Assembly: GCA_047967505.1 (NCBI GenBank)
Contig: CM106538.1
Length of the DNA stretch: 64,000 nucleotides
DNA from: Dipteris shenzhenensis
Taxonomy: Eukaryota
Direction: 5' to 3' (one strand)
Of the stretch, positions 16,975 through 58,870 are shown piece after piece (position 1 is the first letter of the stretch; every line of letters starts with the position of its first letter). The notes under the pieces were generated by a model that saw only the letters and a program-made list of their open reading frames with translations, did not search any database and was not told the origin of the DNA. The translations under genes were made by a program, and so were the position numbers.

Positions 16975-17041
16975 AAAACCCCCAAACCCTAATCCCTGAA
17001 CCCTAACCCAAAACCCTAATCCCTAAAACCTAAACCCTAAT
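16975..17041. repeat. Degenerate plant-telomere-like (CCCTAAA) array
   Basis: AAACCCTAATCCCTGAACCCTAACCCAAAACCCTAATCCCTAAAACCTAAACCCTAA. Confidence 0.7.
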
Positions 17042-22436: not shown

Positions 22437-22849
22437 GAGAATGGATAGGTTCTACTCTTTGGGGGAGGGGTGGTGGATGCAGTCCCCCATGGGTGGCAGG
22501 TATCTTTTGCATCCTGGTACCTCAGATCACCTTCTAATTCTATGTAACTTCTCCTTACCAATTGGGTAGGAATGTCCCTGGATGTCCCTTTAAATTTTGA
22601 CAAATGGCATCTTCGAAGTAATACTTGTGATCTAATCAACAAAGAGAATGGATAGGTTCTACTCCTTGGGGGAGGGGTGGTGGATGCAGCCCCCCATGGG
22701 TGGAAGGTATCTTTTGTACTGGTATCTCAGATCACCTTCCAATTCTATGCAGCTTCTCCTTACCAATTGGGTAGGAATGTGTCCCTGGATGTCCCTTTAA
22801 ATTTTGACGAATGCCATCTTCGAAGTAATACCTATTGTGATCTAATCAA
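22437..22849 (+). repeat. 207-bp-period tandem duplication, probably within a decayed LINE 3' region
   Basis: GAGAATGGATAGGTTCTACTC...GTGATCTAATCAA occurs at 22437 and 22644. It contains a DHL..C-like zinc-finger remnant. Confidence 0.85.
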
Positions 22850-23835: not shown

Positions 23836-24156
23836 CACCAAGGGGCATGCTCCTATGTGGCTGCCACTCGGAGGAGCATGATTCGTAGTGTAAAAGGGGC
23901 AGCCTCCCATAGATAAATATGGGTGAATTATGAGGATATTCAGGCTTGAAGGTTTAGTAAAATGCTCAATGAGCGCAATAAATTTAAGCACGAAGAGAGT
24001 TTGGCTATGGCGTACTAGGGCTTTGCAAATTCATGACATTGCATCCTCATCTGCAAGCTCTCCCTGCTCCGTGATTGTTGCCAAGAGCTTGGCTATGGTG
24101 CAGTTTGCATTTTCTCACCACCTTTGATCGCCACAGCTCACGGACCATCTCTCGCC

Positions 24157-24618
24157 ATGGTGATCGCACTCGGTGGCCCTCCTGCGCCTGTTGTTGCCAC
24201 CGCTCCCACAGCTTGCCAGGTGCGCTGTGCCGGCTGCCGTGGGATCTTGAACGTTCCCGCAGGAATTGTTGAATTTCGTTGTCCGAAATGCAAGCTTCCG
24301 CAGATGCTTCCTCCCGAGTTGCGCCAGCAAGACCCCGGGCAGGGGATTGATCCCTCCAAAACACAGCTTCCCTGTGCCAATTGCAGAGCCCTGCTAAACG
24401 TACCGCATGGGCTGGAGAGATTCGTTTGCCCGCAATGCCGGGTGGAACTCGCTGTGGACATGTCGAAACTCCAAAATTATCTAAGCTCCCTCACAAATGT
24501 CGGTCAGCCAGGCAGAGCACTAGAGCTGCCCGATTTTACTGCGAGCTACAAGGAGGGAATTGGTTCTCCGTTCTGGAAGGAAGAGCAAGGTCCAGCTGAA
24601 GTAGAAGAGGTCAATGAG
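24157..24618 (+). CDS. FGT1: FORGETTER1 / Strawberry notch homologue, first coding exon (two N-terminal C4 zinc ribbons)
   Basis: ATG in GCCATGG context. QVRCAGC..L.V..G..EF.CP.C.LPQMLPPEL, GIDPSKTQLPCANC.ALLNVPHGL.RF.CPQC.VELAVD.SKL and EEVNE match the Arabidopsis FGT1/EMB1135 N-terminus as I recall it. Phase-0 donor GAG|GTAAGC at 24619. Confidence 0.9.
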
Positions 24619-24959
24619 GTAAGCTGCTAATTTGAAGAAGAGGGAATGAATGCCGTTGCCTTGTTGCTTGGATACTTAATCGTCGGTAAACTACCGCTTA
24701 CATCTGTCGCCTGTTGTGCGCGGAAAGAGAATGCAGATTACATTAAATGCTTCAATTTTGCAAGTATCCGCCACTGCACACTATAAACTATTCGCAATAG
24801 ACTACAAATGAAACTTCAAACGCTTCAAGCTCACAAGTATACCTCAAGTTGTGCTCTCTCCCCCACGTTAGGACCTTCAATAGAATTATATGGAAGAGCA
24901 AGAGCAGCACCTAACTGAATACCAAATGCCTCTCTTACTATGGCCGTTTGGGTTGGCAC

Positions 24960-38139: not shown

Positions 38140-40589
38140 AAGATGGGTCTGAACAAAGCTGTGAGGGGCTATAGCCTGTTCAAGGGCCTGCTTCCCGGAC
38201 CGAATGCACTGGTAGCAAGTGGCTCGGGCTGGGTGTGACTCTTGCTTCCTTTTGTTCGTCGAACGAGTCCGGATCTCGTCTTCGTGTGACGGGCTGTCTG
38301 CAAGCCTTGTTGCGAGGGCTGGCGTGTTAGAAAAGTCACTGCCCCACCTGTGAGCCCCTGTTTTGAGGGGACAAGGGGGGCAGGGGACTGCAGGGGGGTA
38401 GGGGACAGAGTACCTACCAGGCTGGAAACCCGTGGGGTAGGGGACAGAGTACCTACCAGGCTGGAAACCCGTGCAGCAGAGGAGAGGGGCGCAGCCCTTC
38501 TACGCAGCATATGGAGCTGGAAATGGCGGTGCCTAGGCTCTGCATCAGCAGCCCATGTGCTGGGCACATGAGCCCCTTTTATAGGGCTGGCCCAAGCCAG
38601 CCAACCAGGTCGGTGGAGGCCAGCCTACAGGTCGGTGCTGCAAGCAGGGGGCCGACCCCCTGCTGGCCGGTTTTTACAGCCCCAAGCAGGGCCTATATAA
38701 AGGCCCCTTTGCCCCCCTCATTTCTCATCACCTGCACTTACAGCCTTGCACACAGGCAAGCGTGCAGAGGAAGAGAAGTGACTTAGCATTTGACAGCATC
38801 CTTTGGCTGTTTGTACCTACTCACCCGTTGAGCTTTTGTCTGCCCACGATTGTGGAAGAATATATATCTGAGTTTTTGACTATCTCTTTCTTAGATCGGG
38901 AGTGAGGTGTGAGTGATTCTATCCTCTATTTCCAACGTGGTATCAGAGCTAGGTTCACCTTTATTACAGCAAGGATGGAGGACAAGGATTCTACTGTTGC
39001 CTCTTCAGCCCCATTTCTTTCTTCCTCCTCCTCCAGATCCGTCTCATTCATTATCCCGAACTTCGAAGAGTCAGGGAAGCTAGACGGGTCAAACTACCTG
39101 ATCTGGAAGATGAAAATCTGGAGCCATGTAGTGGCCCGGAAGTTGTGGAAGCTAACAACGGGGGTGGAGGCAAAACCGGAAGACTTGCTGGACAGCAAGG
39201 GGAAGATGGTCATTCCAGTGGATGGTGAAGAGCTTGAGAATTGGGAAGAGAGAGATGCCCACTCCCTAGCATTAATCATTAGGACCACGGCGGACTCAGT
39301 TCTTCCGCAGATCTAGATGGCCGAGACGTCTGTAGAGGCGTGGGCTATCTTGAAAGATTTGTATGACACTGACAATACATCTCGAATTTTGATGCTCCAA
39401 CATCAACTGTATAATTTGGACATGACTGAGGTAGACAATGTTCATGACCATCTGACAAAAGTCAAGGTGGTAAGGGACCAGCTCGCGGTAATTGGTCAGA
39501 AGGTAGATTCAAGTCAACTGGCATTGTTGAATTTACATAAGCTACCTCGAAGTTTTAAGAGTTTCGTGACTACGGTCACTGCAGGACAGAGGACCAAGCC
39601 TCTCACCTTCGAGGAGCTTGGGCCTTTACTATTGTAGGAAGAGGCTCGGGAAAAATTGTTTACTCAATCGGACGAGAAGGCTCTCGTGGCAAGGGACAAG
39701 CCCGGCAAGGGTAAGTTTAAAGACTCTAAGAACCAAAGCAAGACCGAGGATGCAGAGAAAAAGAGGTAGATGAAGTGCTTCTACTGTGAGAAGCTTGGTC
39801 ATTCTGCTAAAGAGTGCCGCAAGAAGAAGGAGGACCTCAAGAAGGAGTAGTCCAAGTCCAAGGAGGAGCCAAAGACTGAATCGGCAAACGTCACGATTGG
39901 CGCTCTCTTCATCATCAGTGAGTATTGCTCTGCTTATGTAGTCAGTGAAGGAGAGGAAGGTTGGTATGTGGACAATGGAGCTTCAAAGCACATGTCCAAC
40001 AAGAAGGAGTGGTTCAAAACCATGGAAGGTACACATTTCGATTCCAAGGTCACTGTTGGGGATAACCGGTCATGCCCTATGAAGGGTGTCGGTAGTATTC
40101 CATTCATCACGACTGCAAGAAACGAGGAGTTGATTTCGTGTGTACTGTATGTACCGAATTTGTGCAAGAACCTGTTGTTTGTTAGTCAGATGGACAAGCA
40201 CAATATGTCGGTCTTATTCGACAACGGCAAGGTCACTGTCACATCCAAGGCAAACGGACAGGTGGTGGCTCAAGGTGTTGAGGAGCATGGGCTATATCGG
40301 CTCAACGCTTTGTTGGTGCACGGGGACCATGGCATATCCAGATTATGGCATGAGTGGTTCGGTCAGGTCAACTATGGCACTCTCTCCGAGATGCAGAAGA
40401 CAAAGATGGTGGATGGACTTCCACCGATTGCAGGCAAAGATCGTGTCCGCAGGGCTTGCGTGGAAGGTAAGCAACACAGGGACAAGTTTCCACAGGAGGC
40501 CCCATTATGGGCCAAGAAGCTGCTCGAGTTGGATCACGCCGACATCTGCGGTCCAATGTCGACAAATTCATTCGCAGGTTCGCGGTATT

Positions 40590-40980
40590 CTCCCTGCGCT
40601 ACCCCTACGCTACCCCTTGCTTTCTCCTTGCGCTACCCCCTCTGCTAACCCCTCCGTACCCCCTCACTACCTCTGCTACCCCCCCTGCTACCTCTGCTAA
40701 CCCCCTCCGCTACACCCTTCACTACCCCCGCTACCCCCCCGCTACCCCCTCTGCTACCCCCCGCTACCCCCTCCACTACCTACCCCCTCCGCTAACCCCC
40801 CTCGGCTACCTCGCTACCCCCCGACTACCTCGCTATCCTATCGCTATCCGCCCTGCTACCTCGCTACCCCCCCCCCCCCCCCCCTCGCTACCCCCTCTGC
40901 TACCCCCTCCGCTAGCTACCCCCTCTGTACCCTCCCGCTACCCCCTCTGTACCCTCTCGCTACCCCCCCCTCCCCCCCTG
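40590..40980. repeat. C-rich degenerate (CGCTACCCC)-like array
   Basis: Dozens of GCTACCC variants, read directly. Confidence 0.9.
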
Positions 40981-40999
40981 TTTATTTTATTTAAATAAA

Positions 41000-43900
41000 A
41001 AAAAAAGAAGAAAACCCAGGGGGGGGAAACAGCAGCTCCGACCTCCTGCAGTCCCTTCTTTGCCCCCATAATGAAGGGAACAGGGGGATGAGGACAGGAG
41101 ACTAAGTGGGAGGACCCTCGATCTAAAACTGCATATGCGTGGAGATGGGGAAGGGGAATGGTGACAAGGCGAAAACACAAAAGCAACTCAATCTGGAGGA
41201 CTTCAACTCAGCAACCGGAGGGGTTTGACAGTGGACAGCACTGCGGTCCAGAAGAAAGGGGCCCACCCAAAGCCCATGCCGCTCACCACATCCTTGACCT
41301 CTATGGTTACCACCACTATTTCACCACCATCATCCGCCTCATCATCTATGCCACCTCTCTCCTCCCCTTCTCCTGCATCATCATCACAGGTCTCCTCTCC
41401 AGTAGCCTCACCATTGGCTCCACCAGCCACGGCTCCACAGTACTTTCCCCTCGTATCACCTCTACCTCTCAGTCAGCCACCCTTCATCACCTCGTCCGAC
41501 CTCGCTACTCCTACGTATCACTCCCCCGCCCAGATCATACTGTCCCCACCCTCAGTACAACCTCAGCAGCCCACCTTCATTCCAACCCCTCTCGAGATCT
41601 AGTTCCCACCTGGACCAGGACATCTTAGGCCCCCGCTAGATGCTTGGGACTCCCTATTGGTTGAGATACACAGCATCCGGGCCCGTCAGGCAGAGCTGAC
41701 ACATTACACCCAGCTCAGACACGACATCACACAGCTTCGAGAGGAGCTCGGGACCCTCGGAGTAGCGCTTGGAGGGATCCCAGTCACAGAGATGGAGGCA
41801 CAGATAGCCACGATACAGTCAGCTATAGCAGAGACGACTAGATGGGTGGACGTGGCAAAATGGGAGCCCGCAAAGGCAACCGTTTCAGTCGCCATACATG
41901 AGTACCAGCGGAGGGCTTCGAAGGCCCTCAACTTCCGGATACGAGGGATCACGCGAGACAGCACCAGCACCACTAGGATGCCCATGGAGGAGGCGATCAC
42001 CTTTGTGACCACCACCTTGGGGGTCCCCGACCATGGCATAGAGGGAGCATGGGGTGTTGGGAGAGATCCCAACCGAGAGCAGCCCCTAGTCATTCGCTTC
42101 AGAGATTCACATGCTCGACTAGCGACACTCCGACGCCGAGCCTCTCTACGAGAGCATCCCACCCTGTCCATGGACGAGGATTTGATACCACTACAGATTG
42201 AGGAGCGACGAGTTCTTCTGCAGTAGCGGGATGTTGCCCACAAGGAGGGGAAATGGGCCGTGGTCCGAGATGGTAGGTTGTTGACTGGCACCCGTCAGGC
42301 TCCCACCCGTACCCCCTAGGGGGATGGGGCCTATGAGACTCACGTTTTCGAGACCCTAGACTGCACCATTTGGAACTGTAATGGTACCTTATGATCAGAC
42401 CCAGGGAACTTCTCGGAGTCTTATACAGGACGAGACATAGTCTTTTACACGGAGGCACACTAGAGCCTAGAGCGTCCACTACTGATAGTCAGTGGCTACA
42501 CATGGGAGTCAGCCTTCAGGGATGAGACGAGGGATACATGAGGAGTCCGAGGATCAGGTGGGGACGCAGTATTGTACAGGTCTTCCCTCGCTGGAGCCAT
42601 CTCCATTGAGAGGAAGGAGGCACACTTCCGATTCATGTGGATCCGGATCCGACGCACAGACACCTGTGACCTTTTCATAGCAATATGCTACTTCCCGCTA
42701 GACACATCCCACTTTGCCATAGTGGCACGAGAAGAGGGTGAGACATCGCCATATGCACCCTCACATCAGGATATCCCAGACCTTTCAGCCCGCGGGGTAG
42801 GACGAGTACGCGACAGGCACCACTCCTGGACTTCCGAGACGACTCTATCATGCTGCCAGACATGGACCTAGACGGAGCAGGTATGACCAGGACCTCATCG
42901 GACCGACAGGGGCCTGTTACACCATATGGACACGCGCTCCTTGATTTGGGCAGGATGCATGATCTCATCATCTACAATGGGCTCGACCTATGGCCCTCCT
43001 CAGGTGGTTTTACTTGCTTCCCACACGGGGGGGGCACTAGTGTAGTAGATTACATCATGGGATCCCCTACCTTCACTTCATGTATCACTGACTTCACCGT
43101 AGCACCACTCCCTCCAGGAGCTGATCACACATACCTATTCTTCACTATCGCCACCCCACGCTTAGCCACACCACACACACCACATAGGAAGCACGACACC
43201 TACCACGACATACACTTTGATCACAGCCTCTTACCGGCCTACTTTGGATGCCTAAACAGACTCCTAACCTACATCGATCACATACCACTCATAGATGACC
43301 GTGTTGCCCTGATTAGTCGCACACTCCACGAGGCTGTCCTCCAAATCTTTCCCCACACCACACGGTCCACTAGACCACTACCTCTTGGTTCTGTACCCTG
43401 CAACAATTGGTACGATGTGGAGTGCAAGGCTTATTGTCGATAGCTCCGACTTGAAACCAGATGTCATCTCTTGAACACACCAGACACGGTACGCAAGTAC
43501 CGACGTCTCGTACATCGGAAGAAGCATGCTTTTCTTCGTCAAAATGAGGAGGAGCTGTTGCACATCTTGTACAACAACAACTCTAAGGATTTTTGGCGGA
43601 GATTCCTTGAGCGTAGGTCCCCATCACCCCTCACCGACACGAGAGTCTGGCACACGTATGCACACCATCTATATGATGTCCCACACCAGCCCACTCCAGA
43701 CCTCATACGCACACCTCGTTGCACCACTTACACGTTGTTCACCAGAGGGGGAGTTAAGGACGCGACATTGAAACTGCACAATGGCGGAGCTAAGGATCAC
43801 GAGGGGCTATGCATTGAGTTTATCGCATATGGGATCGACACGTTAGCCCCGATCCTAGCAAAGCTATTCAATGACGCTGTTTGCCTTGGCTTCCCCCGCA

Positions 43901-44175
43901 CTTGGACACTGAACACCATCACCCCCATCCACAAGGTAGGGGATCCCATGGACCCGAGTAACTACAGGACTATCATGATTGGACATGTGATGTCCAAGAT
44001 CTATGCAGTTGTATTGGATGCATTGGTCAGCCTGTTTGCAGAGATGAGAGGGCTCAGAGGCTCTCGATTCCTCCATGAGGTTGGCAACAGAGGGAGACGA
44101 GCGATGCTGGTATGCACGGACTCACAGATGGTTTGTGAGACTAGGGTTCCACATCGATAGGATACCTCATCCCCA
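41000..44175 (+). mobile_element. RTEX/CR1-like LINE (ORF1, AP endonuclease, partial RT), internally deleted, inside copia B
   Basis: ORF1 NFRIRGI...PLVIRF...SMDEDL; endonuclease WNCNG, DIVFYTE, LIIYNG..FTC...SVVDYI..DH; RT PIHKVGDPMDPSNYRTIMI. It then jumps to 3' sequence similar to ~28150-28220. Confidence 0.85.
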
Positions 44176-45030
44176 TAGCCGGAGCTGTATCTTTGTGGGA
44201 TATAACGAAGAGTCCAAAGCCTATCGCCTATTCGACCCGGACAAGAAGAAGATCCTTATCAGCAGGTCTGACACATGCCTCTTCTCAGGTGGATGTTTTA
44301 AGTCTCCAAATTTTGATGAGAGGTGGAAGGTGGTGGGTCGAAAGGGTAAGGTCCTCCCTAAAGATCTATCTATTTTTGAGGTGATTAATCTAGGTATTTT
44401 GCATGGGGGATCATAGAGGGAACAGCCTAACTCCCTACATATAGAGAAAGTACATTCTAACAGTGAAAGGGTTTGCATGGATGGTCTATAGCCTAGGCCC
44501 TCTACCCCCAACATCATTGTCCCCTGAAGAGGAGATGTGCGAGGCAAAAACCATTAGAAGCCAGGTTTGGAAAGCACAAGCAAGCAGAGGAAACCCTTGG
44601 GCGAGCTCAAGCAATGAGGATCTATATCAATGGATAACACAAAACAAGTATATTATAGTGGCTACCCCACGCTCTTCCTTAGGCCAATCAAATCCAACAA
44701 AAATTTGCATGCTACTTAGAGGCCTTCATCAAATGTCTTATTGATCAAATATCCATGTGAGCTCAAGTAGCTGCCTCATCGAAGTAAGCATCACAATGCT
44801 CAATTGATGCTCATTGATGTGGAGATGCTAGTGCCTTCATCTGAAAATCCTCCTTAAAAACCCAAAGCCTAAGCAAACATGCACACCTCGTATGATAACG
44901 CTATCCTCATTGGCATAGGAGTCAAGAATTTCTTCCTGCAACCCTGCAAACTTGCACCCATGGTAGTTTTTGTTGGGATAAATGTGATCAAGGGCTTGCA
45001 CTAAGGTGCATGTGTGCATCTAGGGGAGTC

Positions 45031-45086
<56 letters not shown>

Positions 45087-45099
45087 TAGAAGCACGCCT

Positions 45100-45370
45100 A
45101 GTGCTATGAGGTATCAAAAACCATGACACAAGCTTCAAGGAAGAACCTAGGAGCTTGAGACTTGGATTGGGTATGGACGGTGTGAACCCATTGGGTCTCA
45201 AAAGCACCTCTTACAGTGTATGGCCAGTGATATTGGTGAATTATAATCTTCCACCCTCTATGGCGATTAAGAAAGGACATGCTATGTTATCCCTTCTAAT
45301 TCCAGGGAAACATAAAGTCAAAAATCCTCATTTTTATTTGGAGCCTTTGATTGACGAGCTAGAGATACTT
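45100..45370 (+). mobile_element. CACTA/En-Spm transposase (Tnp2-family) fragment
   Basis: LRLGLGMDGVNP...YSVWPVILVNYNLPP...LSLLIPG...YLEPLIDEL. Part of a ~1.1-kb composite (44267-45370) splitting copia SR|DVIFEE. Confidence 0.9.
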
Positions 45371-47585
45371 ATGTGATCTTTGAGGAGACCGAGCCACAGC
45401 TTGTAGAAGAGGTTCCAGAACTTCCGGCATTGCCCCCACCCAAGGTCACCATTCGAGAGGTGGAGCCGACTGAAGACCTCGAGAAGGAGGAGCATGCCAT
45501 TCCAGAGCCAGCTCCCAAGTCAATTCCATCAAAAGCACCTCCATCTGAGAAGAAGCTACCTCAATGGTATTTGAAGACGTTAGCAGACTCACGGGTCACG
45601 GACATTCTCGAGAGTAGTTTTGGAGTGCGGCGGTCTCTCAACGAAACATGAAGACTCCCTCCGTGAACTACGCTTGGTAGCTCAGCTTGTGAAGCCCCGT
45701 TCCTCCCAGGAGGCGAAGGATATTCCATAATGGCAGGAAGTCATGCAGGGAGATGGATGCCATTTTGAAAAATGACACGTGGGATTTAGTGCCCAAACCA
45801 ACCAAGCGGAAGGTCATTGGGACTAAATGAGTGTACAAGCTTAAGTTCAAGTCAGATGGGAGCTTGGACAAGTACAAAGCAAGATTGGTGGTGAAAGGCT
45901 ATGCACAATCAGAAGGACTTGACTTCGACGAGACCTTCGCCCCCACAGCTAGGATGGTGACTATTCGGACAGTCATTGCCCTGGCTGCTCATCACAGTTG
46001 GCCTATATGGACGTCAAGTCTGCATTTTTGAATGGTAACCTGGAGGAGGAGGTATATGTGGCACAGCCACCAGGATTTCAGATCCCAGGATCCCCATCAA
46101 AAGTCTGCAAACTGAAGGCCTTATACGGATTGAAACAGGCTCCCAGAGCTTGGTACCAGTGGATATATGTTTTCTTTCAGAAGATCGGGCTTCAACGGAG
46201 TCCATTAGAGGCAAATCTTTATCTCAACACAGAGGGGGATTTGCGGCTGGTATTGAATCTATATGTAGATGACCTCATCATTACTTAGGATCATATGAAG
46301 AAGATTGCTCAGGTCAAGCGACTTCTTATGGAGGAGTTCGAGATGACTGACTTAGGCATACTTCACTACTTTCTTGGGATTGAGGTGAAGCAGGGAAAGA
46401 GCAATATCTTTATTTCACAGGAGAAATATTGCAGGGAACTGCTCAAACGCTTTGAGATGGAAAATTGCAAAGCAGTAGTGACTCTCATGGAAACTGGTCT
46501 GAAGCCGAGTGTGCGTGATCCATCTCAGCCGGTTGATTCATCACTGTATCGACGCTTGGTGGGGAGTTTGTTTTACCTCACCAATACCCGATCATGTATT
46601 TCCTACGCAGTTGGATTGATGTGCCAATTCTCCGCCACACCCAAGAAGGCTCATTGGGACGCAGGTATGAGGGAAGGTACTTGAAGGGTACCTGCACCTA
46701 CGGCATCACTTATACGAGAGGCATTGAGTTGGGAGGTTTATGTGATAGTGATTGGGTAGGTGACATTGATACCTGGAGATCGACCTCTGGATATTGTTTC
46801 TTACTGTCATTAGGAGCTGTGTCATGGCTGAGTAAGAAACAACCTACTGTCGCCCTTTCATCTACAGAGACGGAGTACAGGGCTGCCTGTACAGCAGCAT
46901 GTGAAGCATTGTGGCTTAGGTGGATCTTGGAGGACATGAATGTGGCCCAAGAAGATGCGACTGTGGTTATGTGCGACAACCAGAGTTGCATAGCGATCGC
47001 CAACAACCCCGTGTTTCACGCACGGACGAAGCACATCGAGGTCCATAACCACTTTGTTCGAGAACTCATTGACGAAGAAGTCATAGAGTTGATATAGTGC
47101 CTGACCAACGACAACTTCTCAGATGTCTTCACGAAGGTGCTTCCCAAGGAGCAGATGGAACACCTCATTCGACGCATGGGGATCGGCCCATAGTTGTGTC
47201 ATTGAGAGGGGTTGTTAGAAAAGTCACTGCCCCACTTGTGAGCCCTTGTTTTGAGGGGACAAGGGGGGTAGGGGACAGAGTACCAACCAGGCTGGAAACC
47301 CGCGCAGCAGAGGAGAGGGGTGCGGCCCTTCTACGCAGCATATGGAGCTGGAAATGGCGGCGCCTAGGGTCTGCATCAGCAGCCCATGTGCTGGGCACAT
47401 GGGCCCCTTTTATAGGGCTGGCCTAAGCCAGCTAACCAGGTCGGTGGAGGCCAGCCTACAAGTCGGTGCTGCAAGCAAGGTGCCGATCCCTGCTGGTCGG
47501 TTTTTACAGCCCCAAGCAGGACCTATATAAAGCCCCCTCTCCCCCCCTCATTTCTCATCACCTGCACTTACAACCTTGCACACAG

Positions 47586-48271
47586 TCCTTGCTATGCATG
47601 ATGGAGTTTATGGTTTTCAATCTTATGAGTGACTATCGTGAGATTGAAACTGCACTATGTTGTGTTTTTAGTAGAGGATGAGTTTGGGAATGTTCCTGGA
47701 TTCATCTAGGTATATGCTTCTGCCGTATTAGCGGACATTCAAATTTCACCTTGTGAAGTTTTCGTCCAAGTTGGCCTGCTGGTATTGCGATAATTCTTTC
47801 TATCTTAAATGGTGCGTTGCCCTATCAGCTAGATTTAGATGCTCGTTTGGGAGAGACTAAAATGAAATCATTTAGACTTCACAAGTAGTTGTAGCTTGAA
47901 TGAAGAGAATTTGGACTACTTTTTGATTGGCCTTCTCCTTTAGTGCTAGCTTTCGTCATGGCTGAGTCTGCCCTTCACCTCCGGAGTGCTGATAGAAACT
48001 CAGTATGAAGACTTTGTATAAATGGATGCTCAAGTATGTGTGGGTGTGTGGATTTGTATGTGTGAGAGCATATTTTTATACTATGGTCTACACCCACTGT
48101 TGGGCGCTGATGACGTCAGTGGGGATGTCATAGTAGCTAGTCCTTGCTACGCATGATGGAGTTTATGGTTTTCAATCTTATGAGTGACTATCGTGAGATT
48201 GAAACTGCACTATGTTGTGTTTCTAGTAGAGGATGAGTTTGGGAATGTTCCTGGATTCATCTAGGTATATA
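47586..48271. mobile_element. Unclassified 686-bp non-coding insertion with 130-bp terminal direct repeats
   Basis: Absent from the 5' LTR. Repeats at 47586-47715 and 48141-48270; TSD CTTGCACACAG at 47575-47585 and 48272-48282. Confidence 0.85.
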
Positions 48272-50194
48272 CTTGCACACAGGCAAGCGCGCAGAGGGAG
48301 AGAAGTGGCTCAGCATTTGACAGCATTCTTTGGCTGTTTGTACCTGCTCACCCGTTGAGCTTTTGTCTGCCCACGATTGTGGAAGAATATATATATCTGA
48401 GTTTTTGACTATCTCTTTCTCCGTCTCTTTGAGTGTTGTATGAGCTAGATCGGGAGTGAGGTGTTAGTGATTCTACATGGCGGTCACGCAAGTTCTCTCC
48501 CGAATGCAGGCTCTTCTGGAAATGTGGATGACGAAGTGCATGCTCCTTAGATAGAACGGAATGTGCGTTCAGGCATCAGCTGTTCGAGTTCATCTCTTGT
48601 TTACCATCAGATTCCACCCATCTGTCAGTCACTTTACTGTCAGAAATTCAGAGATTTGCTGAGTATACAAGATGCACCCCTTTGCATAGAAAAAGGGGAA
48701 AACAGATGCATTTTCAGTGCTATCTGCAGCAGCCAGGTCTCAGTTTCTCCTTTGGGCAGCGGCGGCAGGATGGTCTACTTGAGAGACTAGATAGATTCTA
48801 TGTTGGAGATTGGGCCATGCATAGGGGTGGAACCACCGGTATTCTAGCAGGGACTACCCTCTCGAACCACTCCCCTATCGTTCTTCACCTAGAGCAGCCC
48901 CGTCGTGGCCTACCGTAGAGAGGGGTCCACATTCCAGATGCTTTGCTCTTGGAGGAGGAGGTTCAGCAGAGTATTACAGCTATTTGGCACCAGCCTGAGT
49001 CCCCCCCGCAGGGAGGGTGGGCCGTGTGGGCAGCTGAGGCGATTCAGCGGAGCAGTGAGGAGCTTCGCACCCATGCTATGCACCGCTATCATACTCCTCA
49101 GGAGAGAGAGAGGACTTTGCGGCGAGAGTGGGCCTCCATTGAACGTCTTCGGGAGCAGGATTCAGAGTCGCAGTGGTTAGCAGACCGGTATGAGTGCGCT
49201 CGCTTAGAGATTTAGGATACCGAGGTGAGATGGGCTGAGTACTCCTACACTCCTCTAGATCTCAGTGAGTACAACAGGGTGATAGCAGTTCTTTCAGGCC
49301 ATTGGCCCTAGATTAGCCTGCCGCACAATTGCAGAGATTGAGAGACTCTAGTGGGCAGATGCACTTGGATCTGCAAGAGATCTTGGAGCTGATCTCGAAT
49401 TTCTATCGGCGCTTATTCCAGGCCAAGGAGGGGTCCCCGCAGGTTTTGGCAGCCCGAGATTCAGTTTGGGCTCACGTTCCAGAGGTGGTCTCCCGGAGTG
49501 TGAGCAGGCAGTTGGATGCGCCTTTTTCGGATGCGGAGCTTGGGGAGGCCCTTCGGGCTCTTCCATCCTAGAAGTGCCCTGGGGAGGACGGGCTGTCCCC
49601 GGCTTTCTTTAGGTGCTTCTTGGAGTGCATTCATACCCCCCTCCGCTTGGCTTTTCAAGAGATCTTCGACTTGGGCTCTCTCCCTTCAATCCTGAGTCGT
49701 GGCTGGATATGCCTGATCGCGAAAGGGGGGGATCGTTCAGACCTGAGGCAGTGGAGACCGATCACTCTCCTTGACACTGCGTACAAGATCTTGGCCAAGG
49801 TCTTGAGCTTGCGGCTTCGCCCTCACCTAGTGGACATCATCCATGACACCCACACATGTTTGTCTAGTGAGAGATTGAGAGGGAGAGAGATTTGGAGTAG
49901 GGAGTGAAGGAGACACACTCACCGTAGTCACACACCAGTGGGTGGGGATGAAACAATAAGTGGTACCTCCCCAAGTACACACACTAGTATATATATCTGT
50001 GGATAAGACTAGGGCCACTAAGTACCTAAGTACAATGTGTACTTAGTGTACTTAGTAGTACTAGAATAAAACTGTTACAAGGGTGGCCAGTGCCTTTACC
50101 CCAACAACCTCCCACTTAAAGGCAGTGTGCCCATAAGAGAGAGTAAAGAAAAAACAGCAATATACATCATCATGTACAAGACCAATTGGTCTGC

Positions 50195-53100
50195 TTATCC
50201 TATACCCATAAGCCGTCTGCAGTGTGCAAACCGCTCAGCAGCCAATCCTTTGGTCAACAGATCTGCTGGATTGTCATCAGTGTGAACTTTCACAAGCTGA
50301 AGTTGCTTGTTCTCAAGCACCTCCCTGATAAAATGATACTTCACGTCGATGTGCTTCGTCTTTGCATGAAAAACAGGATTTCGTGCCAACTGTATGGCAC
50401 TCTGACTGTCACAATGCAACAATGGAGTATCACTAGAGTAGCCCAAATCTGCCACTAGCCGAGATAGCCATATAGCTTCCTTGCACGCCTCAGTGGCTGC
50501 AATATATTCAGCTTCTGTAGTAGACAAAGCAATGCATTGCTGCATTCTAGATACCCATGACACTGCACCTCCAGTGAAAGTGAAAACATATCCGGTAGTA
50601 GACTTCCGGGTATCAGGGTGACCGGCATAATCAGAGTCTGTATAACCCTGCACTTTTGCATCTTGACTGCCGAAACATATACACAAGTCCTGTGTACCCT
50701 TCAGGTATCTCATGACACCTTTTACTGCATTCCAATGCTTTTTGCCAGGTTTAGCCATGTATCTGCTAACCACTCCCACTGCAAACGCAATATCGGGCCT
50801 GGTTGCAACCATAGCATACATGAGACTGCCACATGCTGATGCATACGGAATCTTTGACATCTCAGCTTTTTCAGCATCTGTCTGAGGGCTGTCCAAAGCA
50901 CTGATTTTCACATAAGGAGGCAATGGAGTACCAATACTCTTCCCCCCCTCCATGTGAAATCTCTGCAAGACCTTGCCAATATATTCCTTCTGAGACAAGT
51001 ATAGCAACCGCTTTTCCCTATCCCGAAGTATCCGCATACCCAATATATGGTTGGCATCACCAAGATCTTTCATATCAAAGGTCTGGTGCAATCTCTTTTT
51101 CAAGGCATTCATCTCATTATGAGATTTTCCAGCAATTAACATGTCATCCACATACAAAATGAGGATAAGTAAACTGCCATCTGAAGCTTTCTTGGTATAC
51201 AAGCAGTGATCAATGTCACTTCTCCTGTAACCTTGGGTTCGCATGAATGTATCAAACTTATGATACCATTCCCTGGGTGCCTGCTTTAGACCATAAAGAC
51301 TTTTCTTTAGTTTGCATACAAGCTTCTCTTTGCCCTTCACTGTAAAACCCTCTGGCTGCTGCATAAAAATTTCCTCATGTAAATCACCATGAAGAAATGC
51401 TGTCTTGACATCCATTTGGACCAAGTCCATATCTGCATGTGCAACCAATGCTAATACAGTTCTGAGTGTTGTCATCTTAACAACAGGAGAGAATATCTCG
51501 TCAAAGTCAACACCATATTCCTGCTTGAACCCCTTGGCAACCAGTCTGGCTTTATGCTTTGGCTTTTCACCAGGTGTGACCTTAAGTCGATAAACCCATT
51601 TGCATGGCAGTACTTTCTTACCAGTAGGCAAGGATACCAATTCCCAAGTGCCATTCTTGTGAAGACTGTCCATTTCAGACTTCATAGCAAGATCCCATTG
51701 AATCTTGTCTGCCCTCTGCCTAGCCTCTCTGTAGCATGAAGGCTCTCCACAATCAGTGAGCATTAAATAATCAATGCCTGGAACAAATCTTTCTGGCTGC
51801 CGCGTCGGTCTGGTTGACCTTCTAACCCAAAGACCACCGTCTTGAGCTGGCTGTCCAGCCTGTTCATCACCCAGATAAGGTGGCTGTTCCATGTCTCTTG
51901 GCTGCATTTGCATGTCAGGAAGATCACCTAACTGTGCCTCATCCATTGGGATGTCTTCTGCCATAACTGGCTGTCCATTAGGATCTGCTGCAGCATCATT
52001 TAATGGCTGATTATGCTGCTGTTGTGGCTGATTTACAGCCTGTCTGTGTTGCCCATGATGCCTGTCATCATCAATAGTTACTTTTAAAGGTCCCTGCTGT
52101 ACAACAGGTTCTTTGAACATGATGGTTTCATCAAACACGACATCATTGCTGCGTATAAGCTTTCTGTTCTTGGGATCCCAAATCCTGTAGCCCATCTCAC
52201 CTTTGTCACCGTAACCTAGGAATATGCATTTAAGAGACTTTGGATCCAGTTTAGTTCTGTCCTCCCTGCGTACATGCACATACGCGACACAACCAAAGAC
52301 CCGTAGGTGTTTGTAAGACGGAGGCTTACCCGTCCATGCCTGTTCAGGCACACCACCACATAGTCTCTTGTTTGGTGACCTATTAATAAGGTGCACAGCT
52401 GTCTTTACAGCTTCAGCCCAAAATGTGTGGGGCAGTGCAGCATGTGACAACATGGATCTGACTTTCTCTTGAATGGTCCTGAACATTTTTTCAGCTGTAC
52501 CATTCTGTGGAGGATCATATGGTGCAGACAACACCCTTTGAATACCCTTTGCCTCACAGAATTCTTGAAATTCTTTGGACAAATACTCTCCACCATTGTC
52601 AGATCGTAAGGCTTTCAGTTTTTTGCCTGTCTCATTTTCGACCAGTGCAACAAACTTAGTGAAAGCCTTGAACGTATCACTCTTCTTTCTGAGAGTGTAA
52701 ACCCACACTTTGCGGGTGGCGTCATCTATGAATGACAGTATGTACTTTGAACCTCCTAAAGAGAGTGTAGGCATCTCACACACATCTGTATGTACTAGCT
52801 CCAAGAGCTGTAATTTCTGATCTGACCTTCTCTTATGAGGTATTTGTACTTGACGACCGTAGAGACAAAATTCACATTTCTTTAAATCTGAAAATTTTAG
52901 ACTCGGCAAGTAACCAAAATGAGCCAATTGCTCCATTCCCTTAATACTCATATGGCCAAGCCGGCTATGCCACAATGAAATCTTTGGCAGCTCGGTGGCA
53001 TTTACATCAGAATGTGGACAATGTCCACCATGAAGTGAATACAAAGTATCAACCTTAGGACCTTTGGCAATAGCCATTGCCCCTTTGCTGATTTTCCATT

Positions 53101-54277
53101 TCTGATTACCAAAGGTGGTATGATAACCATCGTCATCCAACAACCCTGTGGAAATCAAGTTTTTCTTCACCTCAGGAACATGCCTGACCCCTTTGAGCAT
53201 TAACTGCGGGCCATTTTCAAGAACAAGCCTGACATCACCTATGCCAATGATAGAACATGCATGGTTATCACCAAGAAAGACAACTCCCTTTTGCCCTCCT
53301 GCATATCTGACAAACAGATTTCTGTAGGATGTCACATGAAAGGAAGCACCTGAATCTATAATCCAGGAAAACATATCTGATCCATCACCAGCATGAAGTG
53401 TATGAGCCTCCAGTGAAGAGGTGAAACATATCTCACGTCCACTGTCACTGTCACTAACATAAGTAACATTCAGCTCCTCTTTTTCTTTGCCCTTAGACTT
53501 GCCTTGAGCCTTGCCTTCTTTGGCTCTCTGGTCATTCTTCTTTTGAAAACACTTTTTCTCAATATGTCCCTTCTTGCCGCAATAGTTGCATACAAGATCA
53601 CTCTTAGAGCGGGACTTGCTCCTCTCTCTTTCTTTGTCTTTTCCACGTGTTTTGGACCTGCTGCGTGCATTCAAAGCATTTGACTTCCCAATAGCATTGT
53701 TCTTTCTGTTCATCTCTTCCTGTAGAAGAGCACTCTCCACATCTGCAAATAACAGAATGGCTTTTGAGTTGCTGGTAGAAGTCCTGAATGTGTCCCATGA
53801 CTCAGGTAGAGAACATAGGATGAGTGTAGCTTTCAGCTCATCATCGAGCTTCAACCCCTGGTTGATCACCTGGCTGAATATGCTGTTAAACTCAATAATA
53901 TGAGTGGACATAGCTGTCCCCTCCTTCATTTGAAGACCAACAAGCTTTTTTAGCTAGTAAGCTTTTCCCGTGGCACTTTTCTTGGCATAAGTATCCTCAA
54001 GACGTTGCCACATCTTCCACGCAGTAGGTTCATCCCTGATGCCTACAACCAGTGAATCAACAACTGTAAGCATAATGGTCGACCTGGCCAAGCCGTCCAT
54101 CTTCTCCCATTGCTCATCAGTAACGTTGGCGGGCTTAACACCCTTCTCCTTTATAGGCTTGTACTGGTCCTTCTGCATCAGCACATTGTAGCATTGTGTC
54201 CTCCATATGTCGTAATTTTTAGCTCCTTCGAGCTTCTTTATCTGAAACAAGGACGACACGTCGCTACCGGAACTCAT
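50195..54277 (-). pseudogene. copia D Gag-Pol, complete except one in-frame TAG at 53954-53956
   Basis: ATG 54277 (MSSGSDV). GKAY*LKKLVGLQMKEG stays in frame into the 1244-aa ORF with zinc knuckle, DSGAS, rve, YVDDML and RNase H. Confidence 0.9.
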
Positions 54278-55420
54278 AGTAAAGAAAGTAGACTCCCTGT
54301 AGGTGTGCAATTAAGCACTAGTCACTCCAAGAAAAAATTCTCCCACAGCGGAAGTACGATCAAAAGTGAACTTGGTACTGTTTCAGTGGCATAAAACCAA
54401 CTGAAAGTCTTTCTCCCACTTGCTGCAGAAACAGTGACTTTTTGACAGTCAAATTTGGTCAAACTTGCTGTTTGACAGTCCAGGACTGTCAAGAAACAGT
54501 GAATCTCTGATTTTGGATGAAAATCTCTGATTTTAGACCTCCATATGCTCCAGAAACTTCCCCCCCAACTGAATTTACAGTTTGGAAGTAAGGTGGCTCA
54601 AAAGCCCTTTGAATGCATGAAGAAAATCAGGGATGTGACCTCCAATTTGAAAAGATTGACCTTTGACCAAACACTGTAAGTCAAATTTGCACTTTCAAAG
54701 CATAGTAGTGCTCCACAAGATAGCCTGATGCATGTAGAGTGCTCCCACTTGACAAATTGCCGGTCAGGCTACAAAAGCCCCAAATTTGACTAAAGTCAAA
54801 CTTGGTCAAAATCGACCAAATCTGTACCAAATGTGATTGTACTTTCAGCAACAAGCTAAAGCATTTGTCACAAGCATAATAGCATCAAAAGCCCCTTGAA
54901 TTGGCAGCACATTCCGTGCATTGACACAGTAAATGGCATCAACTGCTACTGCTCACACAAGGCGTTTGACTGCAAATCCATTGAGTTGCATCCAACAAAG
55001 CATACACTGCAAGTATCAAGTACAGATCTGTCCAATGCATACTCTCAGTGCCACCACTGTGTACAATCATTGGCCAAGTGATAAGACCTGTCTCGACACT
55101 GTTTACGGCATTTGATAAGCCTCAGTGCGAGTGAAAGCCCTGCCCCAAGTAGAACACCTGGCTCAAATGCCAGTGGCGAAAGACAATGTTTTCCCGTGGA
55201 AAACAGATAAACAGAAAAGAAATGTTCCTCGATCTGTGGTACCCTGACTGTTGGCTGTACTTGAAAGTCAAGTACAGCAGTGCTGTACCAGATTTCGAGA
55301 GAGAAGGGGGGGGAACTGGAGCTCGACCGCGCCCAGCTGGAGCTCGACGGCGCCTTCGCCTTCGCCTCTTGCTGCTTCTGCAGCTTAGCTCGCCCGCGCC
55401 CGCGCCTTGCAGCCCTTGCC

Positions 55421-55680
55421 TGCGCCCTTGCAGCCACGCCTTTGCAGCCCTTGCCTCGCGCCTTGCAGCCCTGGCCTGCGCCGTTGCAGCCGCGCCTTCG
55501 CGCCTTGCGTGCGCCCTTGCAGCCACACCTTTGCAGCCCTTGCCTCGCGCCTTGCAGCCCTGGCCTGCGCTGTTGCAGCCGCGCCTTCGCGCCTTGCGTG
55601 CGCCCTTGCAGCCACACCTTTGCAGCCCTTGCCTCGCGCCTTGCAGCCCTGGCTTGCGCCATTGCAGCCGCGCCTTCGCG
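55421..55680. repeat. GC-rich 89-bp minisatellite (~2.9 copies) in copia D leader
   Basis: TGCGCCCTTGCAGCCAC recurs at 55421, 55510 and 55599; TTGCAGCC sub-repeats. Confidence 0.92.
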
Positions 55681-58600
55681 ATCCGTCCGTACGGTTGTAC
55701 GGACGACGTACGGCCGTACGGATCGGTCCGTACGGAAGGGGTAGGCTAGGGAGAGGAGGGAGTGGAAGAGGAGGGAGAGAGAGCCCGTTGGCTCTGATAC
55801 CAGTTGAGAGATTGAGAGGGAGAGAGATTTGGAGTAGGGAGTGAAGGAGACACACTCACCGTAGTCACACACCAGTGGGTGGGGATGAAACAATAAGTGT
55901 GTACCTCCCCAAGTACACACACTAGTATATATATCTGTGGATAAGACTAGGGCCACTAAGTACCTAAGTACAATGTGTACTTAGTGTACTGAGTAGTACT
56001 AGAATAAAACTGTTACAAGGGTGGCCAGTGCCTTTACCCCAACATCTAGGAGCGTAGACATCTTTACTTTATGGGAGACATTGGATTGGGCTAGAGAGGA
56101 GTCTCAGCCTCTCGCAATTTTGCTTTTGGATTTCAAGAAGGCCTATGACAGAGTGGAGAAGGCCTATGACAGAGTGGAGTGGTCTTTCTTGGAGGGCACC
56201 ATGCAGAGGCTTGGCTTTTCGGATCGCTGGATCAAGGGTGTCTCAGCCCTTTATGTAGGTAGTTCGAGCGAGATGCTTATTGGTGGCTACACAGGGGAGG
56301 CCTTTTCGCTTTCCCGCTCGGTTCGGCAGGGATGCCCCCTTGCCCCTTTCTTATTCCTCTTTGTGGCCGAGGCCCTAGGGTATTTTCTGAGGTCTCAGTT
56401 GGCGGGACTCACGGGGATGAGGCTCCCGATTCGGCAGGAGGAGGAGCTTTTGGACTCAGAGTTTACAGATGACACAACCCTTTTTGTAGAGGGCTCAGCT
56501 TGGACCTTGGATGCAGCTAGGGAGGCCTTGGCAGTGTATTGTCTAGCCTCAATCTCCAAGATAAACTGGACCAAATCAGTCGGCTTTCTCGCAGCGACAG
56601 AGGATACATGAGATCCAGGATTGGGACTCATCACTAGGCTTCCGGTGGATTCTGAGGGGGCAGACAGCAAGATACCTTGGCTGCCAGGTTGGCATTGATA
56701 TTTCAGCAGAGCAGCAAATCTCCTTGGTCCTAAAGAGTGTTTGGCGCAAGCTTTTGTACTAGAGCTCGGCCAAACTCTCTCTTGCAGGAAGGGCCTTGGT
56801 GGCTAACCAGGTCCTCCTTGCTACCGCCTGGTACATAGCCTCGTGCTGGTGTTTTCACAGGGGATGCATGGGACAGCTGAGGCACTTGGTGCGCAATTTC
56901 CTCTAGGCAAGATCGGATGGCACACGTAACACCCGAGCCAGGGTAGCCTGGCAGACAGTCATCTTGCCCCAAGACCAGGGAGGATTGGGTATTATTGATC
57001 CGGAGATGCAAAGCAGAGCCTTGTTAGTGAGGGGCCTCACTCCAGGTACAGAGCCCTAGAAGCTTCTTTTGCAGCGCGGTCTCCTTCGGAACACCCCCTG
57101 CACGGGTGGTCAGTGGCAGCAGTCACATAGATGGCTCTTCTCGGAGGCCCCCCTTACAGGGAAGGGCTCTCCCTTGATGCGGAGTCTCTCAGAGTTTGGC
57201 AACGATTGGCAAGGGGTCTTATCCGGGTTAGTCCTTAGTTTTCTGAGGAGTTTGCACGACAGCCTCTGATCTAGCACTTGAAGGTCCAGGATCTGGATGG
57301 TCGCATGCTGGGACAGAGGTTACACATTGGTTGGGCACAGTGGGACAATGGCCCAGCTCGATCTCTCAGGACGTGGGCGAGACTTTCGGCAGACGCAGAG
57401 GTAGGATTAGAGACCCTCTCACATCTTCGGGGCGTGGGCCCGAGGATGGCAGAGATTGAGGCAGCTATCCTAGAGTCTTGGTGGGCGAGCCTTCAGAGTT
57501 TCACACGAGCATAGTGGTTGGGCCAGTTCTCAGGGACAGGGGTACCTCTTCGGATTCAGCTATGCCCCCTCCCTCCCATTCTCAGCCGAGCCCGGTTCTA
57601 CAGTGTGCGTCTAGGTGGTTTCTTGCAGTCTCTTGATAGATGGAGATCCGGAGATGGATGGAGCCTTGGATCAATTAGGGTGGCAGAGGGTTAGAGTAGT
57701 GGGCCGTTTGGGCAAGGAGTGGTCGATTGACCCCTCTCGCATCTCAGATCTGGATGCAGCTCGCGGGTGCTTATGGTTATGGGAGGGTCGTCCCCTCATG
57801 AGGTATAGTGGGACCCAGGAGAGTGGTTCTGGCCATCCAGAGTAGGTCACTTAGAGAGAGTGAAGGTGCCCTTCTTCTCTTATACTACACGCATAGGACA
57901 CTGATTGCAGTTGGAGGCAGTAGCCTGAACTCCATTGAGAGAGAGGCATTGGGCAACGTAGCAGGTGCCTTGAGAGGTGAGATCCAGGTTCTGGACACGC
58001 CTCTGGTCCAGTCTTCGACCGCGGAAGATCTCCTACTTTTTCTGGATGATAGCGCATGGAGGTCTTCCTATTGGCCCTTGGTTGGAGCAAATGCGGGTGG
58101 ATGGCAGCTGCCATAGATGCACGATTGGGACTTTGGAGAGGATCCCCCACTGCCTTTGGAGCTGCCTAGAAGCACAGAGGATATGGAGAGGAGCGCTTCG
58201 GATTGTGGCGAGGTTTCAGGGCACGCAGAGGGACTTCACGTGGGGCATGGCTGCTTGGTTGTCAGAGGGTGGCCATGCCTTTCCCATTGACGTGGTCTCT
58301 CCAGCATACAGGATACATGGCTTGTGCATTCACAGCATTGAGTTTCATGAGGTGACCCCTCCCACTAGTCATCGACCTCTTCCTTTGTCGGAGGACAGCG
58401 TGTGGGAGACAGTAGCCAGCATTACGGCATGGAACCTCTGGGTTGCTCGCTGTAGCTGGGTTATGGGCCAGCATAATTATCCACTGTTAGCCACATTGGT
58501 AGCCATCTGGTAGGACATCATCTTCACGCTTAGCACCATTTGGGAGCGAGGCTCTCCAGGTTCTTGAGCTACCGTTGCACGAAGGGAACGTTTTTGCAAG

Positions 58601-58870
58601 GCTTGGCCTGCAGGTGTTTTCTACAACATCACCCTGAGAGGGATCACATGGTTGTATAGTCCGCCACCCTGGTTGTTAGCCCCTGTCACAGAGAATCCCT
58701 AGGCAGTGAGCTGGGATCTCTGGCAGCAGGAGTGTCTTTCTGACAGCCAACATTTGATTTTTCGTTGATTTTCATGGTTGGCACCTTTATTGTATTTGCC
58801 AACTTGTATGATCGTTTTTACAAGCATTAATAGAAGTTCCTTTCTTTGGAAAATAAAAATAAAAATAAAA

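Follow-up and report, generated by a model that had tools for sequence, protein, structure and literature searches.

A 686-bp partial-tandem insert with an empty site in a copia long terminal repeat: a possible non-autonomous retroposon with Penelope-type pseudo-LTRs

Introduction

What kind of element has inserted itself into the 3' long terminal repeat (LTR) of a copia retrotransposon on contig CM106538.1 of Dipteris shenzhenensis (assembly GCA_047967505.1)? The question arises from a 64,000-nucleotide stretch of this contig, referred to below as the window, and from an insert within it that the original prediction, made from the letters alone, had left unclassified. The insert had been described as about 1.23 copies of a 555-bp unit, 686 bp in total, with an 11-bp target-site duplication (TSD), and it had been taken for a non-autonomous retroelement, possibly copied from a circular or tandem RNA. 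Here, we follow its boundaries, its internal layout, its relatives in public data and the predicted fold of its terminal repeat. Our tentative preference is that the insert may be a non-autonomous retroposon, inserted by target-primed reverse transcription (TPRT) as a partial tandem with pseudo-LTRs (pLTRs), as Penelope-like elements (PLEs) do.

Results

Insert boundaries and empty site

The insert covers positions 47586-48271 (686 bp, 1.23 copies of the 555-bp unit) and is bordered on either side by a perfect TSD (11/11 positions), CTTGCACACAG, which contains (CA)3; together with both TSD copies, it extends over 47575-48282. In the 5' LTR of the same copia element, the 11-mer stands only once and runs directly into the sequence that is found downstream of the insert in the 3' LTR, and the repeat families D7 and D8 overlap by exactly the 11 bases of this empty site. 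Because the empty site continues straight into the post-insert sequence of the 3' LTR, the insertion, its exact ends and its 11-bp TSD can be read off directly. The size and make-up that had been predicted for the insert, as well as its absence from the 5' LTR, are thus borne out. The features concerned are listed here, with open reading frame abbreviated as ORF.

47213..48478, + strand: 3' LTR of the copia element, within which the insert lies; aligns with the 5' LTR at about 38325-38921
38745..38755, no strand: empty site, CTTGCACACAG present once in the 5' LTR of the copia element
47575..47585, no strand: left TSD copy, CTTGCACACAG, which occurs once in the empty site
48272..48282, no strand: right TSD copy, identical to the left copy
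47586..47716, + strand: R1, upstream repeat (putative pLTR), equal to the last 131 bp of the 555-bp unit; 128/131 positions match R2
47717..48140, + strand: non-coding body of the unit, 424 bp; ORFs of at most 46 aa, no Pfam family, no Rfam family above noise
48141..48271, + strand: R2, downstream repeat, ending in the family 3' terminus GGTATATA; contigs of three runs leave here or at 47716/47718

The target site as a whole forms a short palindrome, CTTGC-ACACAG-GCAAG (47575-47590 / 38745-38760), of which the TSD comprises the first arm and the spacer, an arrangement that may be due to chance.

Internal layout

The insert has an R-body-R layout, in which two direct repeats of 131 bp each (R1 and R2) enclose a body of 424 bp. 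The repeated segments, 47584-47719 and 48139-48274, are 98% identical and lie 555 bp apart, in agreement with the repeats of about 130 bp and the period of 555 that had been noticed before. Three of the 131 positions distinguish R1 from R2; two of these are the C/T differences previously seen by eye (47595 and 47668, both T/C), to which a third has to be added, G/A at the last base (47716 vs 48271).

The longest stop-to-stop ORF comprises only 46 aa, the dimerised unit included. A Pfam scan of all four insert ORFs at E up to 10 returned no family, and a phmmer search with the 45-aa ORF at 47996-48130 returned no match among 1.84 billion representatives. The ends read TC...TA, not TG...CA; TGG, the start of a primer-binding site (PBS), is absent from the 10 nt downstream of R1, where GCTTCTGCCG stands, and the sequence upstream of R2 (GATGTCATAGTAGCTAG) contains no purine run of more than five that could serve as a polypurine tract (PPT). 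An inverted-repeat search of 40000-52000 yielded no pairs, and none are visible at the insert ends. These results match the original description, which listed no substantial ORF, no TG...CA ends, no PBS or PPT and no terminal inverted repeats, and the TATATA end mentioned there is present as well. A blastn search of the insert against the 64-kb window revealed no further copy.

Family membership and 3' terminus

To place the insert among its relatives, the contigs of four public runs from four studies (X1, X2, X5 and X8) were aligned to positions 47300-48600 at a likeness of at least 80%, with the following yield.

X1: 609 contigs on the stretch, of 235,958 read
X2: 3 contigs on the stretch, of 7.65 million read
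X5: 51 contigs on the stretch, of 17,770 read
X8: 2003 contigs on the stretch, of 43.7 million read

Across four likeness classes, from above 99% down to below 90%, the contigs are distributed as 124/167/174/144 in X1 and 213/221/741/828 in X8. The contig evidence was used for cover and bridging alone, with no copy numbers and no ranking of parts by summed word depth; there was little or no contig cover on the copia LTR flanks and in the X8 bins 47828-47915 and 48180-48223, from which nothing was drawn. The highest share of the insert's sampled words in any public run was 0.38, and no RNA run was listed among the public runs sharing insert words. As there are many distinct variants of one stretch, the insert belongs to a family of many diverged copies, which occurs under more than one organism label. 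Exact scans with a 22-mer of the 3' hairpin and tail (metagenome, genome and viral contig sets) and with a 20-mer of the body (metagenome contig set) gave no matches, and six 14-15-mers of the insert do not occur in the full texts searched.

Many of these relatives end where the insert ends. Behind 48271, 60 X8 contigs run into unlike flanks (agreement 0.39), whose consensus begins with TATATATATA and thus starts with (TA)5, and behind 47716, that is 48271 minus 555, 15 X1 contigs likewise diverge into unlike flanks (agreement 0.43); in X5, single contigs leave behind 47716, 47718 and 48272. Because contigs depart into unlike sequence at the insert's last base, GGTATATA is a real 3' terminus of the family. 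Single-copy repair filler, an ordinary tandem duplication that had been named as the case that would overturn the prediction, is ruled out by this shared terminus and by the distinct contigs, 3 to 2003 per run and hundreds to thousands altogether, that carry the insert in other runs.

Other copies, too, share the transition from R into the body. Its junction, 47716/47717, is bridged by 73 X8 contigs, the best of which reaches 38 letters to its end; 87-89 X8 contigs carry variants at 47739 and 47750, and one 485-nt contig of X5 has a diverged R end ahead of the body. Three letters at 47669 are present in both R1 and R2 but missing from some contigs in each of the four runs (17, 1, 1 and 5 contigs), and R1 and R2 therefore derive from one source lineage, which could have been a tandem or partial-tandem master, a single RNA that was copied two times, or a circle.

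Junction microhomologies

Within the unit, ...GCTAG stands directly ahead of R and GCTTC directly after it. The AG microhomology that the original prediction had listed at the left junction of the insert is present: the TSD ends in AG, as does the unit sequence ahead of R. On the right, the TSD begins with CTT, and the same three bases are found past R in the unit, one base on. The weight of these matches is modest, given chance expectations of about 1/16 and 1/64 and the fact that they were spotted after the fact. Since both match the wrapped unit, they are nevertheless what TPRT on a longer-than-unit RNA would give, with a template extending beyond the insert on either side.

Predicted fold of the terminal repeat

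When folded as + strand RNA, the 131-nt R reaches -44 kcal/mol (z-score -4.78; 0/200 shuffles as good), as against -18.5 kcal/mol for the - strand RNA (z-score -1.34; 19/200 shuffles as good). Its two hairpins are followed by a free AGGUAUAUA tail.

48170..48204, + strand: hairpin 1, 14 bp with 2 G.U pairs and a 7-nt loop; R1 copy at 47615-47649
48231..48262, + strand: hairpin 2, 14 bp with 5 G.U pairs and a 4-nt loop, just before the 3' tail; R1 copy at 47676-47707
48263..48271, + strand: 3' tail AGGTATATA, unpaired in both the minimum-free-energy and the centroid structure

Hairpin 1 is the 14-bp, G-U-containing hairpin that had already been recognised in each repeat, whereas hairpin 2 is an addition to the earlier list. 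Both depend on the strand, with -15.7 and -16.1 kcal/mol for hairpins 1 and 2, respectively, and only -7.1 and -6.4 kcal/mol for their reverse complements; the region around the R1 copy of hairpin 1 (47600-47665) has a z-score of -4.07, with 0/200 shuffles as good. The full 555-nt unit, by comparison, scores nearly equally on the two strands (z-scores of -2.65 for + and -2.62 for -), and the strand asymmetry therefore belongs to R, not to the body. In terms of the folding model, G.U-dependent pairing on one strand is the pattern to be expected if selection acted on an RNA or on the + single strand.

Host copia element and other features of the window

The copia element that carries the insert is degenerate, with gag, Pol_BBD, SH3 and RVT_2 remnants between its LTRs. 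After removal of the insert, its LTRs are identical at 511 of 539 aligned bases (94.8%), with transitions accounting for 22 of the 28 differences. The insertion is thus younger than its host, and the R1-R2 divergence of 1.5-2.3% is compatible with this order. The nearest feature clusters of the copia Pol protein are recorded as Streptophyta, and the closest named proteins, from angiosperms, reach only 47-48% identity to it. The 5' LTR contains a perfect 39-bp tandem duplication (38395-38473) that is partly missing from the 3' LTR (57-column alignment gap), and the degenerate coding region harbours a C-rich array of about 33 copies of an 11-12-bp unit, CCCTCCGCTAC, at 40592-40981, between the Pol_BBD/pre-integrase and SH3 remnants.

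Directly downstream of this copia element lies an L1-type long interspersed element (LINE) on the + strand, in two parts at about 48500-49867 and 56045-58872, with RVT_1 at 56003-56608, zf-RVT at 57974-58510 and an A-rich tail, GGAAAATAAAAATAAAAATAAAAAAG, at about 58848-58873. It has received a young copia element on the - strand (49868-56044), whose LTR pieces at 49868-50106 and 55805-56044 are 99-100% identical and whose 1244-aa Pol ORF (50195-53929) looks intact. A GC-rich 89-bp unit is repeated 3.1 times, with 95-97% identity, near the 5' end of the young copia (55400-55680).

The only clear piece of a host gene in the window is an exon with both FORGETTER1 zinc-ribbon domains (24037-24627, + strand; Pfam E 2e-30 and 1e-23), whose best named relatives are from a moss (52% identity) and a lycophyte (53%), with up to 83% identity in other assemblies. 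Upstream of it, two tandem 207-bp units (22432-22849) are 91-94% identical to each other, with no obvious TSD or tie to the insert. An interstitial plant-type telomere repeat, (CCCTAAA)n, is found at 16980-17040, within the segment 16766-17342 and with compound (CT)n(CA)n microsatellites on both sides, and many perfect dinucleotide runs of 17-27 units are present in the window (14188, 17275, 19856, 36247, 36601, 45034 and 63716). Taken together, the relatives of the copia Pol protein and of the FORGETTER1 exon and the telomere repeat point to a non-seed streptophyte host that has no closely related annotated genome.

Discussion

How could an insert that is longer than its own unit have arisen? 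We tentatively favour a non-autonomous retroposon, possibly inserted by TPRT as a partial tandem in the manner of PLEs, and an RNA intermediate, an order of steps and a kind of reverse transcriptase (RT) that would account for its features can be outlined as follows. The sense strand would be the + strand, giving rise to an RNA that ends in two G.U-containing hairpins and a free (UA)n-type tail, and these would be recognised by an RT supplied in trans. The copia LTR target would be nicked with an 11-bp stagger, upon which the 3' end of the bottom strand (...GCAAG) could anneal at the CUU just past R and prime cDNA synthesis at the end of R. Synthesis would cover one full 555-nt unit and 131 nt of a second, either because transcription had read through a tandem or partial-tandem master copy or because the RT had jumped to a second RNA. 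Finally, the remaining cDNA end would be joined to the top strand at the 2-nt AG microhomology, which would produce R-body-R, that is, a pLTR structure.

Because the pLTR layout R-body-R is the signature of PLEs and their non-autonomous derivatives, the most likely mobiliser would, by analogy, be a PLE-type RT with a GIY-YIG endonuclease. PLEs are described as undergoing 5' truncation and forming partial tandems that give rise to pLTRs, and non-autonomous Chlamys elements as possessing pLTRs, head-to-tail copies and 3' ends common with autonomous families (PMC8557442). In our case, a partial tandem with direct pLTRs of 131 bp is observed, whose junction recurs in at least 73 X8 contigs and one X5 contig, and the 3' end is fixed. 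For rotifer PLE insertions, TSDs of 8, 9 or 10 bp or microhomology joints have been reported, along with pLTRs of 181-218 bp, one of them with a TATATATA box, and an ability to carry unrelated DNA in trans (PMC3846280). PLE insertion is further reported to favour (TA)n, (CA)n and (C)n (PMC8557442, supplement File S1). With respect to these two properties, the present insert, a single copy with both flanks, shows a TSD of 11 bp that includes (CA)3, as compared to the 8-10 bp reported, and its relatives in X8 have flanks that start with (TA)5 behind 48271. In addition, purified PLE protein is described as beginning reverse transcription within its RNA, near the pLTR-body junction (PMC11167929). 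A chance-level lead, noticed by eye, is the resemblance of ...CTTGCTAGC..., which is found in the 5' starts of Chlamys-1, -4 and -6_cBra, to TCCTTGCTATGC at the start of R.

Several points weigh against this reading. A Pfam scan of 102 of the 137 stop-to-stop ORFs of at least 90 aa in the window, the other 35 overlapping larger ORFs in other frames, detected no PLE RT or GIY-YIG domain, nor did any autonomous element sharing the 3' end come to light. Six PLE consensus 3' ends from the supplement of PMC8557442 (Chlamys-1, -3, -5, -6_cBra, PLE-X1_cBra and Chlamys-1_cAtm) are, as judged by eye, unlike ...CATCTAGGTATATA; two 13-mers of the insert's 3' end have no occurrence in the text of that supplement, where line breaks could mask a match. 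This copy further lacks the 30-40-bp 'tail' and the adjacent inverted 5'-truncated copy that are stated to be frequent in PLEs (PMC8557442). The Rfam search detected no hammerhead in the insert, a feature confined to the canonical PLE clades; Naiad and most Chlamys PLEs are described as being without canonical hammerheads (PMC8557442). For the only PLE examined in vitro, the RNA bound by the RT is located downstream of the pLTR and not within a 3' hairpin (PMC11167929), and endonuclease-bearing PLEs of the green lineage are recorded in PMC8557442 only from algae and, by horizontal transfer, from conifers. Loose ends before 47675, 47839, 47938, 47955 and 48012 suggest, but do not prove, variable 5' ends, as contigs cannot tell truncation from subfamily mosaics. 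Finally, the variants in the hairpins provide evidence that is thin and mixed: a common G>A change at 47638 (19 X1 and 4 X5 contigs) replaces U.G by U-A in hairpin 1, whereas a common T>C change at 48176 (18 X1 contigs) would break a U-A pair of the same hairpin, barring a compensating change.

As the main alternative, the same 3' end could also have been used by a different machinery. Recognition of the 3' stem-loop and the short (UA)n tail by a LINE RT, again followed by TPRT, would yield R-body-R through a single template jump, in which the RT reached the 5' end of one RNA and continued in the 3' region of a second, with the resulting structure being inherited by a subfamily; we consider this origin unlikely, if by no means negligible. 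The RNAs used by stringent LINEs have a hairpin at their 3' terminus and a short repeat tail behind it, and work on eel UnaL2/UnaSINE1 reportedly established stringent LINE recognition of a 3' stem-loop and short repeat tail. The insert resembles such pairs of LINEs and short interspersed elements (SINEs) in its hairpin, its (UA)n-like tail, its TSD of more than 10 bp and its 5'-junction microhomology; it differs from them in that it has no RNA polymerase III head (neither a tRNA, 5S or 7SL match nor an A or B box), contains six T4-5 runs on the + strand and shows R-body-R as a family habit. An 11-bp TSD with microhomology at the 5' junction is classical for LINE-mediated insertion (PMC3846280), duplications of 15 bp have been called LINE-like (PMC4918200), and LINEs do occur in this genome, as illustrated by the L1-type element with RVT_1 and zf-RVT at about 48.5-58.9 kb. 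Moreover, two long X1 contigs (1303 and 1824 nt; word depth 206 and 319) match only 47850-48041 and 47976-48242, in the 3' part of the unit, and may represent longer relatives or a partner of either kind, PLE or LINE. However, the tail of the window's only LINE is A-rich and not shared with the insert, to which this LINE has no similarity by blastn at E up to 1, and the presence of the R-to-body junction in at least 73 contigs of another organism indicates that the partial tandem is a family habit, which is unusual for LINE or SINE families. A copy longer than its unit might likewise arise by rolling reverse transcription of the 555-nt unit as a circular RNA, as in retrozymes, and both the 1.23 unit copies and the wrapped-unit microhomology at the two junctions are what a circular template would lead one to expect; the unit RNA is, in addition, structured on the + strand. 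Animal non-LTR retrozymes are tandem and non-coding and have now been linked to PLE pLTRs (bioRxiv 10.64898/2026.07.22.740005). The insert shares with these retrozymes and with PLE pLTR tandem repeats a short non-coding unit present in more than one copy length, a structured RNA and the lack of a PBS and PPT (PMC4918200; bioRxiv 10.64898/2026.07.22.740005), and metazoan retrozyme repeats also have long duplications (15 bp in Nematostella; PMC4918200). As presented there, however, animal non-LTR retrozymes are defined by their hammerheads and circular RNAs, and among the Rfam families, searched at E up to 10, none of the self-cleaving ribozymes matched either strand of the insert, which itself includes the wrap-around junction. 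Searching both strands of 47000-48900 against Rfam 15 at this threshold returned only six matches, all of them microRNA, CRISPR-repeat or long non-coding RNA noise, the best having an E of 0.3, against a gathering score of 60 bits, and a lone CTGATGA (48107-48113) has no stem II and no GAA core after it. Since, in addition, the - strand of the unit is about equally structured and a circle does not predict one fixed 3' terminus in many contigs, we regard a circular template as very unlikely. Of the two parts of the original inference, a non-autonomous retroelement made from a longer-than-unit template is supported, with the strand-specific fold and the junction microhomologies lending further weight to an RNA template, while the circular-RNA option, for which an Infernal/Rfam check across the circular junction had been suggested, finds no support.

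Two further explanations were considered. The sizes of R, body and R (131 + 424 + 131 bp), the non-coding body and the 98% identity of R1 and R2 would place the insert in the size class of miniature LTR retrotransposons of the TRIM, SMART or plant-retrozyme type (PMC4918200), moved by the integrase of an LTR element. Such elements have direct terminal repeats, a non-coding centre of 300-600 bp and plant hosts in common with the insert, and plant retrozymes are described as having a hammerhead in each of their 300-400-bp LTRs, a 4-bp TSD, a PBS(tRNA-Met) and a PPT (PMC4918200). The insert departs from this group in its 131-bp repeats, its 11-bp TSD, where 4-5 bp would be usual, and its lack of TG/CA ends, PBS(tRNA-Met), PPT and hammerhead (PMC4918200); LTR-type TSDs in general are given as 4-6 bp (PMC4918200, PMC11630846). 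Refuted on four defining features (TC...TA ends, no TGG in the 10 nt after R1, no purine run of more than five before R2 and an 11-bp TSD) and devoid of a hammerhead, an origin as a miniature LTR element is extremely unlikely. A DNA-level event, namely the capture of a 555-bp satellite or extrachromosomal circular DNA piece at a staggered break, or the activity of a Mutator-like element (MULE) without terminal inverted repeats, is highly improbable as well. Microhomology at both junctions would fit end-joining too, the 11-bp TSD falls within the range of MULEs, and some X8 joints place R beside R, as in tandem DNA (e.g. 47728 to 47592, with ATATA between). Against this stand the coincidence of the insert end with the exit point of 60 X8 and 15 X1 contigs, which a random satellite piece would not show, and the confinement of the G.U-dependent fold to one strand; a DNA transposon, moreover, would be at odds with the missing terminal inverted repeats.

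Other known classes were considered and rejected by their defining features. Ends of the TC...TA type, the missing PBS and PPT and the 11-bp TSD exclude TRIM, SMART and LTR elements, and the missing hammerhead, PBS and PPT, together with a TSD of 11 instead of 4 bp, exclude plant retrozymes. A SINE transcribed by RNA polymerase III was rejected on the basis of the missing Rfam and ARAGORN matches, the missing A and B boxes (as judged by their consensus patterns) and the six T4-5 runs on the + strand; across the whole window, Rfam at gathering scores returned no match and ARAGORN no tRNA. Helitrons have a 5'-TC, a 3'-CTRR with a subterminal hairpin, and insert between A and T without a TSD, whereas the 5' TC of the insert is preceded by G and combined with a TATATA end and an 11-bp TSD. 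MULEs have terminal inverted repeats and TSDs of 9-11 bp, a range that also applies to their non-TIR (terminal inverted repeat) forms; here, there are no terminal inverted repeats and only the length of the TSD fits. A match to a known transposable element family, the other outcome that would have contradicted the original prediction, was thus not obtained for TRIMs, retrozymes, SINEs, Helitrons or MULEs.

Returning to the PLE-type retroposon that we tentatively prefer, its closest counterparts would be the MRC1-like non-autonomous Chlamys elements, which are likewise non-coding, arranged as partial tandems with pLTRs, devoid of a canonical hammerhead and abundant, and which are associated with (CA)n/(TA)n (PMC8557442), as the insert may be too. 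MRC1 of Chlamydomonas reinhardtii itself was first described as a non-autonomous LTR element (PMC8557442). Compared with these elements of green algae, the insert is much smaller, resides in a non-seed streptophyte and has a 3' end unlike the six PLE consensus ends; compared with Chlamys-type PLEs, this copy is without the 'tail', the inverted 5' copy and a detected autonomous partner. It is tempting to go one step further and speculate that an endonuclease-bearing PLE RT, or an undescribed RT, is active in a non-seed streptophyte lineage from which no such elements have been reported. This enzyme would recognise a 3' double hairpin that has a (UA)n tail but no ribozyme, and would, as a rule, copy beyond a single unit of a tandem or circular RNA, but we consider this quite unlikely. 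The literature on PLEs in bryophytes, ferns and charophytes yielded nothing specific; one review merely lists PLEs among plant transposable element classes.

PLE insertions with a clean empty site are described as rare, because PLEs usually land in microsatellites, where TSDs are unreadable (PMC8557442). The copy analysed here provides exact junctions, with an 11-bp stagger, two-sided microhomology and an extension of 131 nt into a second unit. For annotation, it holds the lesson that an R-body-R element of this kind would be mistaken for a TRIM or for a solo tandem repeat. If its mobiliser were a LINE, it would represent an ordinary, though oddly built, SINE-like family. If, on the other hand, the mobiliser were a PLE, the insert would extend the range over which active endonuclease-bearing PLEs are known within the green lineage and offer a small, abundant and ribozyme-free substrate for studying the origin of pLTRs. 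Should the reading that invokes a PLE or an undescribed RT in non-seed streptophytes prove true, the family would be a plant-side counterpart of animal non-LTR retrozymes that does without a hammerhead.

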